From: Candidatus Microgenomates bacterium | Lineage (GTDB): Bacteria > Patescibacteriota > Microgenomatia > UBA8517 | NCBI GenBank assembly: GCA_049519355.1 | Contig: JBEKQV010000003.1 | Location: forward strand, 19,646 to 83,645 | Length of the DNA stretch: 64,000 bases | Direction of reading: 5' to 3' | Shown: in pieces, positions 3,521-57,255 of the stretch | Layout of the letters: every line of letters starts with the position of its first letter | How positions within the stretch are numbered: position 1 is the first letter of the stretch | Notes under the pieces: model-generated | What the model saw: only the letters and a program-made list of their open reading frames with translations | Databases searched by the model: none | What the model was told of the DNA's origin: nothing | Translations under genes and position numbers: made by a program

Positions 3521-4510
3521 TCAGAATAAGTTGGCCCAGATAATCATTGCCTCTTTTAGTTTCTTGAAATATATTCCTTTCGGAAATTTAATTTTCTGAG
3601 CCAGTTCAATATAACATGATTTCGGGTTGTTTCCTTTCAAATTTAATTCCTCGACAGATTTCCATAGAATCTCATTAATTTTCATTCCTTTCAGCTCTTT
3701 TGTACGGTTATGTCCCGTGATTGAGGCTTTTTTGTGATTAACGAAAGGGGATCCATTGACAACACCGGTTTTCAGGTGATCCATTATTTTTTTTGAAAAT
3801 ATTCCGGCCCAAATGTCGTCGTATCTGTCATAACTCCATAGTTTTCCTTTGGGATCAGTTCCCATCATTGGGAAAAACATAATCGGTGTCACCTCCCGTT
3901 TAAACGCAAGGTTCATACTACACATCGGATAAAAAAGTCCAAATGGAATAAATTGGGTTAATGGTGGATAATTCTTCTCGTTCAAAATTTTTGGAAGTTT
4001 GATTTCTGTTTTTGCATCCAGGTCAAGTGCTCCGGACCATAGGCCGTGACTTACACTTACGGAATGAACATCTCTATTTTTGTAGGGGAAACCACGGGTG
4101 AACATCCATTTGGGGTTAGGATATGTTGCTTGCCAACCCACCGGTATTTTCCTTCTTAGATTCTCCAAGTGTTTTTTGACAAAATCTTTTTCGGCAGGGT
4201 AGCAGTCATCGTCAATCGTAATGATTACGTCCGCTCCGGCATTATAGGCTTCCCAGAAGCCAAAGGAACGAATTCCTGCATTTTTTCGGGAAAATATCCA
4301 CGATTTTTTACCAAATTCTTCTTCAATATCTTTGTGGGAGAAGACGGTAACTGAGGAAAACTTTAAATCTGGAATTTTGGCTTTTTTCTCCCACCGGTCT
4401 TCAACAATAATCAGGTGACAACCTGAAAATTCATTCTTCCATCTATTTAGAAATGACAAATTTCTTATTGTAGGAATAACAACGAATACTTTTATTCTTT
4501 CATTCTTCAT
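3521..4510 (-). CDS. GT75 family protein (reversibly glycosylated polypeptide / UDP-arabinopyranose mutase-like)
   Basis: VVIPTIRNLSFLNRWKNEF...HLIIVEDR and IITIDDDCYPAEKD align closely with plant RGP1 (IVIPTIRNLDFLEMWRPFF...HLIIVQDGD and IFTIDDDCFVAKD). The ORF-track start at 4531 is TTG; I use the internal ATG at 4510 (MKNERIKVF), which removes the overlap with the next gene. Confidence 0.7.
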   Translation of the reverse strand: MKNERIKVFVVIPTIRNLSFLNRWKNEFSGCHLIIVEDRWEKKAKIPDLKFSSVTVFSHKDIEEEFGKKSWIFSRKNAGIRSFGFWEAYNAGADVIITIDDDCYPAEKDFVKKHLENLRRKIPVGWQATYPNPKWMFTRGFPYKNRDVHSVSVSHGLWSGALDLDAKTEIKLPKILNEKNYPPLTQFIPFGLFYPMCSMNLAFKREVTPIMFFPMMGTDPKGKLWSYDRYDDIWAGIFSKKIMDHLKTGVVNGSPFVNHKKASITGHNRTKELKGMKINEILWKSVEELNLKGNNPKSCYIELAQKIKFPKGIYFKKLKEAMIIWANLF

Positions 4511-50239: not shown

Positions 50240-50760
50240 ATAATGTCTTAAGCGGCTATCCACCGCGTTATCAACGCGGGGCAGCAAAGCTCTTTGACGA
50301 TTAATCACTAAATGCGTAGACTGAAGGCATGAAATGCCTGAAGTCTACAGCTCATACTAGGTACGATCTAAGATATCACTTTGTCTTTCTCCCGCATTAC
50401 AGAAAGCGAGTACTGACAGGCAAAGTGGCAAGAAGTATTGAGGGAATGATTAGGTTTGCATCTCAAATCAATGATTGGGAAATATACGAGCTTGCTGTAA
50501 TGCAAGATCACGTACATTTATACCTTGGGGCAAGCCCAAAATGGAGCCCATCCCAGATTATGAAAATAGTTAAAGGTGGGACAAGCAAAAAAATTACAAA
50601 AATGTATCCAAATCTCGATGAAATATACTGGGGCTCCAACTTTTGGGCCGTTGGTTATATGGTTAAATCAGTTGGTGAGGCGACAGACAAAGTGATATCT
50701 GACTACGTTAGAAAACAGAAAGGAGAAATCCTTACGAAAACAACGGACTTTTAGTCCGTT
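50240..50760 (+). mobile_element. IS200/IS605-family insertion sequence (tnpA only); boundaries approximate
   Basis: Y1 HuH transposase gene, preceded by two subterminal hairpins (50263..50279 ccgcgtt-atc-aacgcgg; 50316..50348 gtagac...gtctac). The tnpA ATG sits in the second hairpin's loop, as in IS200. Confidence 0.6.
50329..50754 (+). CDS. tnpA: IS200/IS605 family transposase TnpA (Y1 HuH)
   Basis: YDLRYHFVFLPHYRK, HuH motif HVHLYL, and the catalytic Tyr region near the C-terminus. Length 141 aa. Confidence 0.85.
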   Translation: MKCLKSTAHTRYDLRYHFVFLPHYRKRVLTGKVARSIEGMIRFASQINDWEIYELAVMQDHVHLYLGASPKWSPSQIMKIVKGGTSKKITKMYPNLDEIYWGSNFWAVGYMVKSVGEATDKVISDYVRKQKGEILTKTTDF

Positions 50761-50790
50761 GAAGTTTATTTGCTCCAAGAGGAACATAAC

Positions 50791-50994
50791 ATGAGTTTTC
50801 AACAAGATATAGCCAAAATTTTTAAAGAAGCCAGAGAAAAAGCCGGTCTTACTCAGGCTGAAGTAGCAAAAAAGGCAGGAATTCATGCTAATTATTATGC
50901 CCGCGTTGAAAGAGCAGATCCAGCGGCTAGTGGGGTTATCCTAAATAAGATAGCAAAAGCGTTAGGACTTAAAATTAAACTGCCTCTCGAGTAA
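50791..50994 (+). CDS. XRE-family helix-turn-helix DNA-binding protein (67 aa)
   Basis: KAGLTQAEVAKKAGIHANYYARVERADPAASGVILNKIAKALG is a classic HTH_XRE. ATG at 50791 preceded by AAGAGGA; the ORF-track start is TTG. Confidence 0.6.
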   Translation: MSFQQDIAKIFKEAREKAGLTQAEVAKKAGIHANYYARVERADPAASGVILNKIAKALGLKIKLPLE

Positions 50995-53197: not shown

Positions 53198-53255
53198 TAC
53201 TCATGCACTCTATCAAATTGACAAAAATTTGGCAATAACGTATATTGACGGCTGC

Positions 53256-54269
53256 ATGAGAAAAGAAGTTTATTGGGCTATCGCAATTGGAATTTTATTT
53301 GGACTTGCGGTGGCGTTCGGCGCATGGCGCATTAATTACTCATTAAAATCAAAAACTCCGGCTCCAACTCCAACACCCGGCATTCAAAACACCAACACGT
53401 CCTCAATCACGCTTGATAAACCCGAAAATAATGACGTCGTAACCGTAACTCCACTAACCGTTACCGGAATTACAAAACCTCTTAGCTGGGTTACCGTTTC
53501 CGGAGAAAAGGGAGATTACATTACCCAAAGTGATGAAACAGGAGTTTTTTCGCAAGATGTTGATTTGACACCTGGTGCAAATCAAATTAAAGTCACTTCT
53601 TTGGACTCTCAGGGAAATGAGTCTTCTCAAAAAGTATTGGTTGTTTATTCGGCATCCTTTCAACTAACCCCAAGTTCATCCCCCGTTCCGACAAGCGCAA
53701 CAAGCGAATCCGAGATAAATCAGGAAGTAGCTCAGCAAGTTGCCGAGGCATCAAAAAACCCCAAAGCTTACATCGGAACCGTTACCGATATCGCCGATTC
53801 CACAATACAAATAAAATCAACCGACAGCCAGATACAACAAATATCAATTAGTGCCCCCGGCATCGGTGTCGTAAATCTTAAAGGAACAAATAATAATCAG
53901 ATAAAACTAACTGACATCGCCATTGGAGATTTTATCATCGCGATGGGATATGTTAATTCAAACTCCGTTCTTGATGCACAACGTATCCTGGTTACAGACC
54001 CCCTGGCTCAAGCCCAAATCAACGCGTCCGTAGCCGAGGTTGCAGGCATTTCTAAAAAAACCATAACCGTAACCGATATTAAAAGCGGTACTCAAAGTAC
54101 GCTTACTCCCGACAAAAATACGGATATCGAGTCGTATACCAATGGGAAGGAAAGAGGCTTAAAGATTGCCTCGATAAATCAAAACGACTTGGTAATTATT
54201 GTTCTTGATCAATCGGGTACTCCCGTAATCCTCCGTTCCGTTTTTGACATCGGCGCCTCACAAGGTTAA
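53256..54269 (+). CDS. Signal-anchored hypothetical protein with Ig-like/beta-rich extracellular region
   Basis: ATG at 53256 gives MRKEVYWAIAIGILFGLAVAFGAW (TM), then a PTPTP linker and beta-rich sequence. The ORF-track start is TTG. Confidence 0.3.
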   Translation: MRKEVYWAIAIGILFGLAVAFGAWRINYSLKSKTPAPTPTPGIQNTNTSSITLDKPENNDVVTVTPLTVTGITKPLSWVTVSGEKGDYITQSDETGVFSQDVDLTPGANQIKVTSLDSQGNESSQKVLVVYSASFQLTPSSSPVPTSATSESEINQEVAQQVAEASKNPKAYIGTVTDIADSTIQIKSTDSQIQQISISAPGIGVVNLKGTNNNQIKLTDIAIGDFIIAMGYVNSNSVLDAQRILVTDPLAQAQINASVAEVAGISKKTITVTDIKSGTQSTLTPDKNTDIESYTNGKERGLKIASINQNDLVIIVLDQSGTPVILRSVFDIGASQG

Positions 54270-54274
54270 GCGAC

Positions 54275-54302
54275 TTGACAGGCCGAAATATCGGCATATA
54301 AT
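54275..54302 (+). promoter_or_regulatory. Sigma70-like promoter (TTGACA - 16 bp - TATAAT)
   Basis: ttgaca at 54275..54280 and tataat at 54297..54302, both consensus hexamers. Confidence 0.4.
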
Positions 54303-54319
54303 ACCTTTTGTTAGTCCAG

Positions 54320-54374
54320 CCTCTCGTTCCTTGCTCACCTATATTGGGTGAGCAACGACCGGGAGGTTTTTTTG
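54320..54374 (+). terminator. Strong intrinsic-terminator-like hairpin plus U7 (terminator of the upstream gene and/or leader attenuator or small RNA)
   Basis: Inner stem ttgctcacc / ggtgagcaa (9 bp). Outer stem cctctcgttcc / cgaccgggagg (~9 of 11 pairs). Followed by ttttttt at 54367..54374. It lies between the promoter at 54275 and the hisS-like ATG at 54399. Confidence 0.45.
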
Positions 54375-54398
54375 TTTGCGAAATGTTAGAATATTGCT

Positions 54399-55310
54399 AT
54401 GTCAGCTAAGGGTCCGGTTACACCAAAAGGCTTCGGCGACATTATGCCGGAGGAAGCTCTGAAGCGGCGTGTTATGATAAACGCCATTGTTCCCGTGCTT
54501 GAAAAATACGGGTTTAAACCTCTCGAAACTCCTACCGTTGAGTTCGCCGAGACTCTCCTTGGAAAATACGGCGAAGAAGAGAAACTCGTTTACCAATTTG
54601 AAGATAAAGGCGGAAGAAAGTTGGCCTTAAGATACGACCTAACCGTTCCCCTGGCCCGATTCGTAGCCAATAATTTAGGGCTTTTAAAACCGACATTTTC
54701 CCGCTACCAAGTTGGACAATGCTTCCGTGCCGAGAATCCTCAAAAAGGCAGACGGCGTGAGTTTACACAGTTTGATTTCGATACGGTTGGTTCGGATAGT
54801 GTTGGTGAGGATATTCGCGTAATTTCGGCCGCAATTGAAGGAGCCCGTGCAATTGGTTTGAAAGATGCAGTTATGCAAATAAACGACAGAGGGCTTTTTG
54901 ACAAAATCGGTTTTTCTAAAGAAGCAATAACTGCCATAGATAAAATCGATAGAATTGGTAAAAATGCAGTTATCGAGCTTCTCAAAACTATTGATCTGAA
55001 GGAAGCTGAAAGCAAGTTTGAAAAGTTGGAAATGGCCAAGGAAACAGATAGACTCTCACAAATCTTTATGGAGTTGGCAGCCAGGGGTTTTAAAAAGGGT
55101 GAAGATTTTACTTTTGATCCTTACTTAGCCCGTGGACTAAATTACTACACCTCGACAATTTTCGAATTGAAACTTGATAAAACTCCGGGTGGGCTTTCGG
55201 TTGGCGGCGGTGGAAGATATGATGATTTGATCGGAATGTTTGCAGGCAAACCTATCCCCGCTGTAGGATTTTCATTTGGAATTGACCGAATTATCGATCT
55301 TATACCCTAG
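54399..55310 (+). CDS. Histidyl-tRNA synthetase-like class II catalytic domain protein lacking the anticodon-binding domain (HisZ-like / HisRS paralog)
   Basis: Motif 1 LRYDLTVPLARFVA, motif 2 CFRAENPQKGRRREFTQFDFD and motif 3 GGGRYDDL are all present. The protein ends ~30 aa after motif 3 (303 aa versus ~420 for HisRS). Confidence 0.7.
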   Translation: MSAKGPVTPKGFGDIMPEEALKRRVMINAIVPVLEKYGFKPLETPTVEFAETLLGKYGEEEKLVYQFEDKGGRKLALRYDLTVPLARFVANNLGLLKPTFSRYQVGQCFRAENPQKGRRREFTQFDFDTVGSDSVGEDIRVISAAIEGARAIGLKDAVMQINDRGLFDKIGFSKEAITAIDKIDRIGKNAVIELLKTIDLKEAESKFEKLEMAKETDRLSQIFMELAARGFKKGEDFTFDPYLARGLNYYTSTIFELKLDKTPGGLSVGGGGRYDDLIGMFAGKPIPAVGFSFGIDRIIDLIP

Positions 55311-55312
55311 TT

Positions 55313-56236
55313 ATGAATCCTGCCAGAAAGCGTGCCTATCTTGAACTAATTTTGGTTGCCGCAATTTGGGGTATTGCCTCCGCCGTAATAAAATTCGGCC
55401 TTCGGGAGCTCACTCCATTTCTATTTCTGACTTACAGATTTTTTCTGACAATCTTAATCTTGCTGCCTTTTTATCTTTTTTCCAAAAACAAAAGTTTCGG
55501 CGGAATAAAAAAACTTCCTCTCATTCTTTTAATCTCGGTTTTGACAACGACCCTAAACCTTGGCCTCCTCTTTCTGGGTACTAATTTGACTACTGCCCTT
55601 GATCAATCAATAATCGCCGCCTCTTCCCCGATTCTTGTAATATTCGGCGGCTGGTTAATTCTCCACGAACACGTAACCAAGCGTGAACAGTTGGGAATTC
55701 TAATTACGATTCTCGGCACAATAATTATCACAATCCAACCACTCTTGCATACAACCAGCGAAATGGGAAACCTATTGGGAAATTTATTGGTTTTCGGCTC
55801 AAACTTTGCCTGGGTCGGCTACGCCCTTCTGGCCAAGAAAGCTCTGAGAGAGGGCATCTCACCTTTTAACTTGACCTTTGTTTCTTTTATTGTGGGTTTC
55901 ATCACCTGCCTACCCTTGGCTTTTTTGGAAGTCAAAAACTTTAATCTTATAGCACCAATTGTAAAAATTACCCTCTCGGCCCATTTGGCTGTCTTATATA
56001 TGGCGGCTTTGTCCGGAGGGCTGGCATACTATCTTTACACCAAGGCTCAAAAGACTATCGAAACCTCGGAAGCCTCACTTTTTATATATTTGCAGCCGAT
56101 TTTTACTGCACCCGTGGCCTTCTTCTGGCTGGGTGAGAAATTTACCTGGGTATTTATCCTGGGATCGGTAATAGTTGCCGCAGGTGTTATTCTTGCCGAA
56201 TGGAAGAAAAAAAGGTATAATTCTTCCTCAGTATAA
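55313..56236 (+). CDS. EamA/DMT-family transporter
   Basis: Ten TM helices in two EamA repeats. N-terminal [21 protein letters not shown]. Confidence 0.8.
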
Positions 56237-56243
56237 GAAACAT

Positions 56244-56552
56244 ATGAAAGCTAAAATCCATCCTACATGGTTCCCGGAAGCGAAGGTTATTTGTGCCTGT
56301 GGAAATACATTCACGACAGGGGCAACCGTGCCGGAAATTCATGTTGAAATTTGCTACAACTGCCATCCTTTTTATACAGGCACAATGAAATTTGTTGACA
56401 CTGCCGGACGCGTTGATGCCTTTAAGGCTAAAATGGCCGGCGCCGTAAAACATATCAGCAAAACCGAAAAAAGGAGAGCCAAAAAGCTTAAGAAACTTGC
56501 AGAAGAGGCAGCTCGTCCGGAGTCGCTTGCTGAGCTCAGAAAGCAAGTTTAA
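56244..56552 (+). CDS. rpmE: 50S ribosomal protein L31 with a basic C-terminal extension
   Basis: [23 protein letters not shown]...[10 protein letters not shown] is the canonical L31 zinc-ribbon signature. ATG at 56244; the upstream in-frame ORF-track extension is rejected. Confidence 0.85.
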
Positions 56553-56562
56553 TTAACCGTTC

Positions 56563-57255
56563 ATGGAACCTCAAACTGCATACTTGGAAATAAGAGGTGC
56601 GACAGGTGGCGATGAAGCCAAACTTTGGGGACAGGATCTTCTCCGCATGTACATCCGCTTTGTTCAGAAAAAAGGCTGGAAAGTGCTCCAAGTGGCCGAT
56701 TCGGTAATAAAAATAACGGGCCCCGGAGTCTTTGACAGTCTTAAAAATGAATCGGGAGTTCATAGAGTCCAGCGCGTGCCGGTAACTGAAAAACGCGGTA
56801 GAATCCACACCTCCACAGCCACGGTTGTTGTTCTTCCCGAAATTAAGGAAAACGAAATCCAAATTAGTCCAAATGACCTTGAGTGGAGTTTCACCAGAGC
56901 TGGAGGTCATGGAGGTCAAAATGTAAACAAAGTTTCGACTGCAGTCAGACTAATTCATAAACCAACCGGTACCGTTGTAGAAGCCCGCGAGGAACGTTTC
57001 CAGGAGCAAAACCGCCAGATAGCCCTTTCGCTACTTAGATCCAAGCTTTGGGAAAAACAGGAAGAGGAAAAAATGCAGACAGTTGCAGGCTACAGAAGCG
57101 TAATCGGGCACGGAATGAGAGCCGAAAAGATACGCACTTACAACTTCCCGCAGGACAGGGTTACCGACCACCGGATAGGCAAAAGCTGGGGCAAGCTGGA
57201 AACAATAATGGATGGGAATTTAGACCGTGTTATAGAGCTTACCAAGAACATTTAA
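56563..57255 (+). CDS. prfA: Class-I peptide chain release factor, RF1-type (PVT motif), lacking N-terminal domain 1
   Basis: GGQ motif [12 protein letters not shown] and codon-recognition tripeptide PVT (RF1 PxT type). The protein begins at the equivalent of E. coli RF1 residue ~105 ([12 protein letters not shown]). There is no room upstream for domain 1, since rpmE ends at 56552. Confidence 0.75.

Follow-up and report, generated by a model that had tools for sequence, protein, structure and literature searches.

The stretch of DNA analysed here, referred to as the window, comprises 64,000 nt of contig JBEKQV010000003.1 from a Candidatus Microgenomates bacterium, and the subject of this work is a gene encoding a 303-aa homolog of histidyl-tRNA synthetase (HisRS) together with the promoter, long hairpin and U-tract located in front of it. 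By every sequence test except that for the anticodon-binding domain, the protein is a HisRS and not a HisZ protein. The loss of this domain is a lineage trait of most Microgenomates, and the gene is, judging from its sequence relationships, probably the organism's hisS, derived from a full-length HisRS of the archaeal/eukaryotic type. The promoter, hairpin and U7 tract upstream of hisS were shown by homology to be the remains of a predicted histidine-specific T-box riboswitch, while transcription of hisS itself appears to start from a separate promoter, positioned so that the mRNA would be leaderless. This whole reading, i.e. a domain-less hisS with a leaderless promoter and an orphan His T-box terminator upstream, is considered probable.

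The Pfam analysis of the 303-aa protein revealed tRNA-synt_His (PF13393) only, and no HGTP_anticodon (PF03129) domain was found. The NCBIfam hisS model TIGR00442 aligned residues 8-302 with profile positions 2-312 of 406 and gave a score of 290.3 bits, exceeding the curated equivalog cut-off of 286.75 despite the absence of about 95 profile positions. The best HisZ model, TIGR00443, reached 160 bits versus its cut-off of 271.65, and the other 20 HisZ models remained far under theirs. The class II motifs and the histidine-binding block, listed as retained in an original prediction made from the sequence of this region, were all found: motif 1, motif 2 (FRAENPQKGRRREFTQFDFD, residues 109-128), the HisRS-specific LARGLNYYT (243-251) and GGGGRYD (269-275) and motif 3 (GFSFGIDR, 290-297). 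According to the same prediction, the protein stopped about 30 aa past motif 3, but the C-terminus is in fact located 6 residues past the motif-3 arginine (…GFSFGIDRIIDLIP). Over 79 orthologs, 88 positions were at least 97% conserved, including those of motif 2, LARGLxYYT, GGRYD and motif 3. Catalytic residues are typically the ones lost by HisZ proteins, and such conservation of the catalytic motifs is what an active enzyme, as opposed to HisZ, would show. The best PDB sequence matches were true HisRS proteins (6nhi at 3e-52 and the human enzyme at 9e-45), the sequence and fold matches were headed by eukaryotic, archaeal and Bacteroidota HisRS, and the protein was aligned by sequence to the human and Elizabethkingia enzymes. 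In the fold search, ranks 1-48 were occupied by HisRS and the first HisZ appeared at rank 49; the AlphaFold model used as the query had a predicted local distance difference test (pLDDT) value of only 65 and served solely to confirm HisRS structures as the top matches. An NCBI entry from a Microgenomates metagenome-assembled genome, 100% identical to the 303-aa protein, is named histidine--tRNA ligase.

When GTDB species were scanned with one genome each, 80 loci were obtained from Woese-, Curtiss-, Davies-, Gottesmanbacteria and other Microgenomates, with the gene running off the contig end in two of them. Among the 78 complete species-level genes, 76 encoded proteins of 286-321 aa and only two were full length (407 aa in locus L061 and 402 aa in L080). 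The truncated gene was present in five closed chromosomes (CP011214.1, CP066686.1, CP066693.1, CP066688.1 and OY970314.1), and nearly all of the 120 best database relatives were 277-310 aa long. All short forms stop at one point just past motif 3 (…GFSFGIDRIIDLI), and this common end point excludes a frameshift or an assembly error. A tblastn search with three Microgenomates anticodon-binding domains detected no coding sequence for this domain in any frame of the window, and the EamA gene begins so close to the hisS stop codon that no space is left for it; the claim that the domain is truly missing and not displaced by a frameshift was thus upheld. The full-length hisS of deeper relatives (L061 and L119) sits in the same hisS-EamA-L31-RF slot (L31, ribosomal protein L31; RF, release factor), which makes the truncated gene the positional ortholog of canonical hisS.

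In L025 and L007, Microgenomates tRNA-His genes have a GUG anticodon and encode both G-1 and C73, the chief determinants for HisRS, which are read by its catalytic domain; the remaining catalytic core would charge tRNA-His via these acceptor-end determinants. A tblastn search with two HisG proteins and with the 303-aa protein itself revealed neither HisG nor a second copy of the synthetase gene in the window. HisG had been predicted to be unexpected in this genome, which agrees with its absence from the window but not with two Daviesbacteria loci, in which hisG is present under a His T-box.

The promoter preceding the hairpin has a perfect TTGACA-16-TATAAT sequence (12 of 12 positions), was the top site in the 10 kb scanned, and by our own estimate chance alone would produce about 0.02 such sites over both strands of 64 kb. 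For the hairpin downstream of it, folding predicted 22 pairs, and the conserved core on which the model was built contains 20; two internal mismatches interrupt the stem, and because of them a simple terminator scan missed it. The minimum free energy was -35.3 kcal/mol (z = -5.25), and none of 200 shuffled sequences folded equally well. A GC-rich stem-loop directly before a U-tract is what characterizes an intrinsic terminator, and termination is predicted at this site. The hairpin also proved to be conserved in relatives. The sequence of its lower stem (CCUCUCGUUCC…GACCGGGAGG) recurs unchanged in L002, L003, L004, L006 and in 12 metagenome loci, the invariance in the metagenome set being imposed by the search pattern, the upper stem covaries with six pairs changed on both sides, and the T-run is kept in 16 of 17 hairpin copies. 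A covariance model (R1) derived from the hairpin copies led to diverged copies in 12 more loci and gave no match in the window besides this hairpin. The original prediction had described the perfect promoter and the long hairpin with U7 ending 25 nt before the ATG, and had made its case depend on conservation of the hairpin in orthologous loci; all three points were confirmed.

The flanks of the diverged copies contain an element of about 165 nt, located upstream of the hairpin and provided with its own TTGACA/TATAAT promoter. Three parts of the element are conserved: a CCGUUA motif, a small specifier hairpin and the sequence AAGGAUGGGACCGCGGGAG. The loop of the specifier hairpin, AGUCACG, contains the His codon CAC and was found in 15 loci on 11 different covarying stems. 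In L083, the Rfam T-box model RF00230 aligned end to end across positions 4280-4503 (34.2 bits, E = 4e-6), with AAGGAUGGGACCGCGGGAG placed on the T-box sequence and the 5′ strand of the hairpin on the 3′ strand of the antiterminator. The predicted L083 antiterminator consists of 6 bp, a 7-nt bulge UGGGACC and 7 bp (-15.3 versus -34 kcal/mol for the terminator), and UGGG of the bulge has its complement in the C73-C-C-A end of tRNA-His. L083 is a metagenome locus with the truncated gene at the orthologous position, and its gene order is the same as in the window: the gene with a bacterial Ig-like (Big) domain, the leader, hisS, EamA, L31 and RF. Predicted control of the truncated gene by a His T-box in L083, like G-1 and C73 in the tRNA-His genes, indirectly supports a role in charging tRNA-His. 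Intact leaders precede hisS (in L083, and in L061 via a small open reading frame (ORF)), hisG (L039, L066), tRNA-His (L025, L007) and peptidase or other genes. At Rfam gathering thresholds, only tRNAs were detected in the window and 13 related loci taken together, and a 48-kb scan by E-value missed the T-boxes too; it was the focused Rfam scan of L083 alone that exposed the T-box alignment. No report of T-boxes in candidate phyla radiation (CPR) bacteria, nor of a HisRS without the anticodon-binding domain in these bacteria, was found in the literature searched, an absence that is not proof of novelty.

In alignment A4, the window corresponds to L083 minus about 155 columns, which fall between the 54303-54317 segment and the hairpin. 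The promoter, the short 5′ segment, the hairpin, the U-run and the proximal -10 element of the L083 leader are kept, and the hairpin of the window is near-identical overall to the L083 terminator, with an identical lower stem. The AGYCACG specifier hairpin and the AAAUCCGUUA motif, both present in 15 related loci, were not found in the window, no match to GGATGGGACCGCGG (the T-box sequence) exceeded the chance level there, and the Rfam T-box model gave no match at E <= 10 on positions 54100-54450. With both the specifier and the T-box sequence missing, the element in the window is a remnant and not a T-box member; its homology covers the terminator helix, that is, a part of the T-box element and not the whole. 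The original prediction was therefore right in that the leader is too short for a working T-box. Its proposal of a short leader or an RNA of about 65 nt held in part: the promoter-terminator unit encodes an RNA of this size, but it would not be the leader of the main hisS transcript, for which a separate promoter is predicted.

Some arrangements of the His T-box in related loci were recorded in addition. In L025 (4257-4399) and L007 (4080-4233), a gene for tRNA-His(GUG) that includes G-1 starts 0-2 nt past the U-run of the His T-box, and the ligand tRNA appears, as read from this layout, to be transcribed only by readthrough of its own riboswitch. In two Daviesbacteria loci (L039 4095-6903 and L066 343-2524), the His T-box leader is followed by hisG, after which comes the truncated hisS; none of the downstream ORFs scanned there (EamA, L31, RF and a methyltransferase) was identified as a further his-biosynthesis gene. 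In L066 (497-631) and also in L025, L052, L039, L007, L011 and L008, the T-box sequence folds into a short hairpin followed by U6-8 (GGGACC-GCGGGA-GGUCC-UUUUUU), with the long terminator located 20-110 nt further on. This gives two serial terminator-like elements and a very large antiterminator loop. A rearranged variant was found in L001 (5777-5995) and in L005, L009, L010, L012, L021 and L114, in the order promoter, long hairpin, specifier-hairpin domain, GNRA-loop terminator (GGGAACC-GAAA-GGUUCC-U7) and hisS. In this variant, which lacks a T-box sequence, the U-run of the hairpin is decayed and the lower stem is drifting; in L114, a second promoter separates the long hairpin from the specifier domain.

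Sensor-less copies of the promoter-hairpin unit were found in different organisms. Among 15 of them, 12 had both hexamers at 12 of 12 positions, and the mean pairwise identity was 0.93 for the hexamers versus 0.43 for the spacers. Such conservation suggests that the orphan unit is still under selection. One sensor-less unit (L111 203-1382), composed of a promoter, a T-box-type hairpin and U6, is followed by an extended -10 element near the ATG and an M20-family peptidase gene; peptidase genes like this one belong to operons with an intact His T-box in L007 and L011.

In 68 of the 81 orthologous loci, a TANNNT hexamer precedes the start codon by 4-10 nt (mostly 6 nt); it was TG-extended in 40 of these, the corresponding values for shuffled upstream controls being 26% for TANNNT and 1.5% for the TG-extended form. 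A Shine-Dalgarno (SD)-like motif was found in only nine of the 81 loci. The extended -10 element in the window would set the start of transcription on the A of the ATG and give a leaderless hisS mRNA. On the basis of these conserved signals, the presence of a proximal promoter of its own would place the hairpin outside the main hisS transcript.

The following mechanism is proposed. In the ancestral-type leader, as in L083, a sensor for tRNA-His would be present and the 5′ strand of the hairpin could pair with the T-box sequence to form the antiterminator. Since the sensor and the T-box sequence are deleted in the window, nothing is left to compete with the terminator. Transcripts initiated at the strong promoter, as well as readthrough from the upstream gene, would stop at about position 54373, producing an RNA of about 65 nt and insulating the hisS promoter. 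Expression of hisS from the proximal promoter would be constitutive, and the control by tRNA-His charging would have been lost at this locus.

Several points weigh against this reading. Charging of tRNA-His by the 303-aa protein is deduced from sequence, as it is for any natural HisRS lacking the domain, and a second, distant hisS could lie beyond the window on the contig of about 870 kb, in which case the protein would be "a HisRS" and not "the HisRS" of the organism. The T-box assignment of L083, at 34 bits, is far under the Rfam gathering score of 93 and depends also on our own reading of the specifier, and the 5′ half of the alignment is unreliable as it runs into the promoter. The consensus structure that RNAalifold derived from eight sensor domains was weak (-6.4 kcal/mol), which is why the individually covarying hairpins were relied upon and the full T-box fold is not claimed. 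The proximal promoter, the leaderless start and termination at 54373 are likewise read from sequence signals. Finally, a pure relic is not expected to keep a perfect promoter, and the conserved hexamers, together with the second sensor-less copy before the M20 peptidase gene in L111, hint at some function.

Such a function could be that of a constitutive or factor-dependent attenuator, the hisS mRNA being supplied by a set fraction of readthrough. This is unlikely, even though the hexamers are under purifying selection in the 15 sensor-less copies, the unit is always placed directly upstream of a gene (hisS or the M20 peptidase gene) and the intact ancestor operated exactly in this way. Nothing in the remaining sequence could oppose a hairpin as stable as -33 to -35 kcal/mol with U7 behind it, the readthrough mRNA would be devoid of an SD sequence, and the conserved leaderless-type hisS promoter is present even in loci without the hairpin.

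We find it rather more doubtful that the product of about 65 nt is a functional trans-acting small RNA which evolved from the T-box terminator. The invariant lower stem, which together with the covarying upper stem would fit such an RNA, owes its invariance to antiterminator ancestry and in part to the search pattern, and in the L001-type copies decay has set in both in this stem and in the U-run. The unit has its own conserved consensus promoter and a strong terminator and occurs in two gene contexts, but the single-stranded parts of the RNA are limited to a 5′ tail of 8-20 nt and the loop, both of them variable, and no target, conserved single-stranded segment or competing structure was found. 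Other candidates considered for the hairpin (SRP RNA, Y RNA, group II intron domain V, sarcin-ricin antisense and a HisRS minihelix substrate) were dropped because of the lack of Rfam support, the variable loop and the T-box homology, which accounts for the conserved strand. The hairpin in this window is most likely a relic of the His T-box terminator, with a fixed attenuator or a functional small RNA as possible alternatives.

The original prediction had taken the protein for a HisZ-like or carrier-ligase paralog. A regulatory or other non-translational paralog of this kind, coexisting with a separate full-length HisRS that charges the tRNA, is improbable. Its length and the missing anticodon-binding domain are indeed those of HisZ, in L039 and L066 a His T-box is followed by hisG and, 0.1-0.6 kb further downstream, by the truncated gene, and one cluster member (P0110) is named "ATP phosphoribosyltransferase regulatory subunit" in its NCBI record. 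However, the protein passed the hisS cut-off and failed those of all HisZ models by far, its catalytic residues are at least 97% conserved, and hisG was not found in the window or in 78 of the 80 related loci. The HisG of L039 is the long form with the HisG_C domain, a form that works without HisZ. The gene is, moreover, the positional ortholog of full-length hisS, and the only anticodon-binding-domain homologs found were fragments of full-length genes.

An artefactual truncation, be it through a frameshift, misassembly or gene splitting, is hardly conceivable, as the one seemingly full-length close relative, P0074 (394 aa, 77% identity), comes from a recombinant or chimeric contig and the short "stand-alone" anticodon-binding-domain proteins in the database are pieces of broken full-length genes, while the end point is common to 76 of 78 complete genes, those of the five closed chromosomes included, and the EamA gene abuts the stop codon in a window devoid of any coding sequence for the domain. 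The P0074 contig (L120 4001-5185) shares 3146 nt with a truncated-type contig (L093) at 99.65% identity, the match ending at codon ~298 and giving way to unrelated sequence. As it matches the truncated type only up to motif 3, P0074 was rejected as a close full-length relative and represents either a natural recombination that re-attached the anticodon-binding domain or a chimeric metagenome assembly. The split gene was also rejected: the anticodon-binding domain of P0074 used as a query returned only six short proteins, and the one on a long contig was a piece of a broken full-length hisS. A free-standing Microgenomates anticodon-binding domain was not found in the database search, which gave fragments of full-length genes only. 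The features of the hisS locus are summarized in the table below.

Table. Features of the hisS locus in the window.
Feature	Position	Strand	Remarks
Upstream gene	53229-54269	+	Membrane-anchored, bacterial Ig-like domain; Pfam Glucodextran_B/Big_6
Sigma-70 promoter TTGACA-16-TATAAT	54275-54302	+	12/12; homologous to the promoter of the L083 His T-box leader
Pyrimidine-rich 5′ segment of the predicted ~65-nt RNA	54303-54317	+	In L083 the sensor would follow directly
Long hairpin, orphan T-box terminator (by homology)	54318-54368	+	5′ strand CCUCUCGUUCCUUG
U7 tract of the predicted intrinsic terminator	54367-54373	+	25 nt 5′ of the ATG at 54399
Extended -10 element TGtTAGAAT	54384-54392	+	6 nt 5′ of the ATG; predicted promoter of leaderless hisS
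hisS	54399-55310	+	303 aa; catalytic and insertion domains, no anticodon-binding domain
EamA-family transporter gene	55313-56236	+	Pfam EamA; begins 2 nt past the hisS stop codon

The stop codon of the upstream Big-domain gene is located 5 nt 5′ of the -35 hexamer, and the gene has no terminator of its own. It precedes hisS in 32 of the 81 loci, among them L083, L093 and L109 (54-56% identity). The EamA gene adjoins hisS in 61 of the 81 loci and is a member of the conserved hisS-EamA-L31-RF block. A TTGACA-17-TATATT promoter (11/12) of the Big-domain gene was identified at 53218-53260, overlapping the annotated TTG start, and the true start is probably an ATG about 10 nt past the -10 element; the closeness of this ATG to the -10 element implies that leaderless genes may be common in the genome. 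The release-factor gene (56563-57255, + strand) encodes 230 aa and matched the PCRF profile from position 100 only, so N-terminal domain 1 seems to be lost, an apparent further domain loss within the hisS gene block. The release factor of the closest relative, L001, is of similar length (231 aa), and those of Daviesbacteria have 296-313 aa. The adjoining L31 gene (~56247-56552) encodes a Lys/Glu-rich C-terminal extension of about 30 aa. Further upstream, at 50329-50994, a gene for a small helix-turn-helix protein comes after one for an IS200/IS605-type Y1 transposase (PF01797), and a perfect 9-bp hairpin is present at 50741-50761. No tRNA gene or tRNA-like element (ARAGORN) and no Rfam family at the gathering threshold were detected in the window (1-64000).

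A more general proposal, that most Microgenomates use a catalytic-domain HisRS as their sole HisRS by means of G-1/C73 and have a divergent family of His T-boxes whose decay leaves selected promoter-terminator units (a small RNA or a fixed attenuator), is put forward tentatively, with the case for it falling a little short of the case against. If the truncated protein is the sole HisRS, it would be a natural, lineage-wide proof that HisRS can dispense with its anticodon-binding domain, with a bearing on the identity rules of tRNA-His, on minimal or ancestral class II synthetases and on genome reduction in CPR bacteria. The leaders described here suggest that T-box riboswitches occur in CPR bacteria in a form scoring under the Rfam threshold, and the window would illustrate a route of riboswitch decay, in which the sensor is gone and the persisting promoter and terminator come to resemble a small-RNA gene or a mini-attenuator. 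For annotation, the results account for the alternate HisRS and HisZ labels on these genes. The points of interest are the domain-less HisRS across the lineage and the hidden T-box family of CPR bacteria.

T-box riboswitches (RF00230) are leaders that sense tRNA and control the transcription of aminoacyl-tRNA synthetase and amino-acid genes, e.g., Bacillus glyQS, tyrS and hisS. The leaders of the relatives resemble them in that the CAC loop matches the anticodon of tRNA-His and the UGGGACC bulge its C73-CCA end, a strand is shared between the antiterminator and the terminator, a U-run follows, and hisS, hisG and other His-related genes would be regulated. Unlike these riboswitches, the element of the window has neither Stem I with the specifier nor the T-box sequence and cannot sense tRNA. 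The Microgenomates T-boxes differ from typical ones also in that a terminal hairpin loop, and not an internal loop of Stem I, presents the specifier; an F-box-like CCGUUA lies 5′ of the specifier and several members have the second short terminator. The actinobacterial ileS T-boxes, known also from structures of the Mycobacterium T-box with tRNA, are said to have an "ultrashort" Stem I. The compact design with the specifier in the terminal loop of a short hairpin is similar, a likeness by description, but the actinobacterial elements act on translation through SD sequestration, whereas the Microgenomates leaders end in an intrinsic terminator.

With regard to the protein, the E. coli HisRS fragment 1-320 reportedly keeps reduced adenylation and aminoacylation activities. 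Like the 303-aa protein, it comprises the catalytic core and the insertion domain and ends just past motif 3, and its activity means that a domain-less HisRS can in principle charge tRNA-His through G-1/C73. The fragment is artificial and of the bacterial type, whereas the protein described here is natural, lineage-wide, of the archaeal/eukaryotic type and under strong purifying selection. HisZ, the regulatory subunit of the short-form ATP phosphoribosyltransferase, shares with it the HisRS catalytic fold, the lack of the anticodon-binding domain and a similar length; in contrast to HisZ, the present protein does not satisfy the HisZ models, has intact catalytic motifs and no hisG in the window, and is encoded by a syntenic ortholog of full-length hisS. 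A natural synthetase without an anticodon-binding domain, relying on recognition of the acceptor stem, has been described in Desulfobacterales (CysRS*, PMC5389517). CysRS* is a class I enzyme and a specialised second copy beside a normal CysRS (PMC5389517), whereas the truncated HisRS occupies the housekeeping locus.

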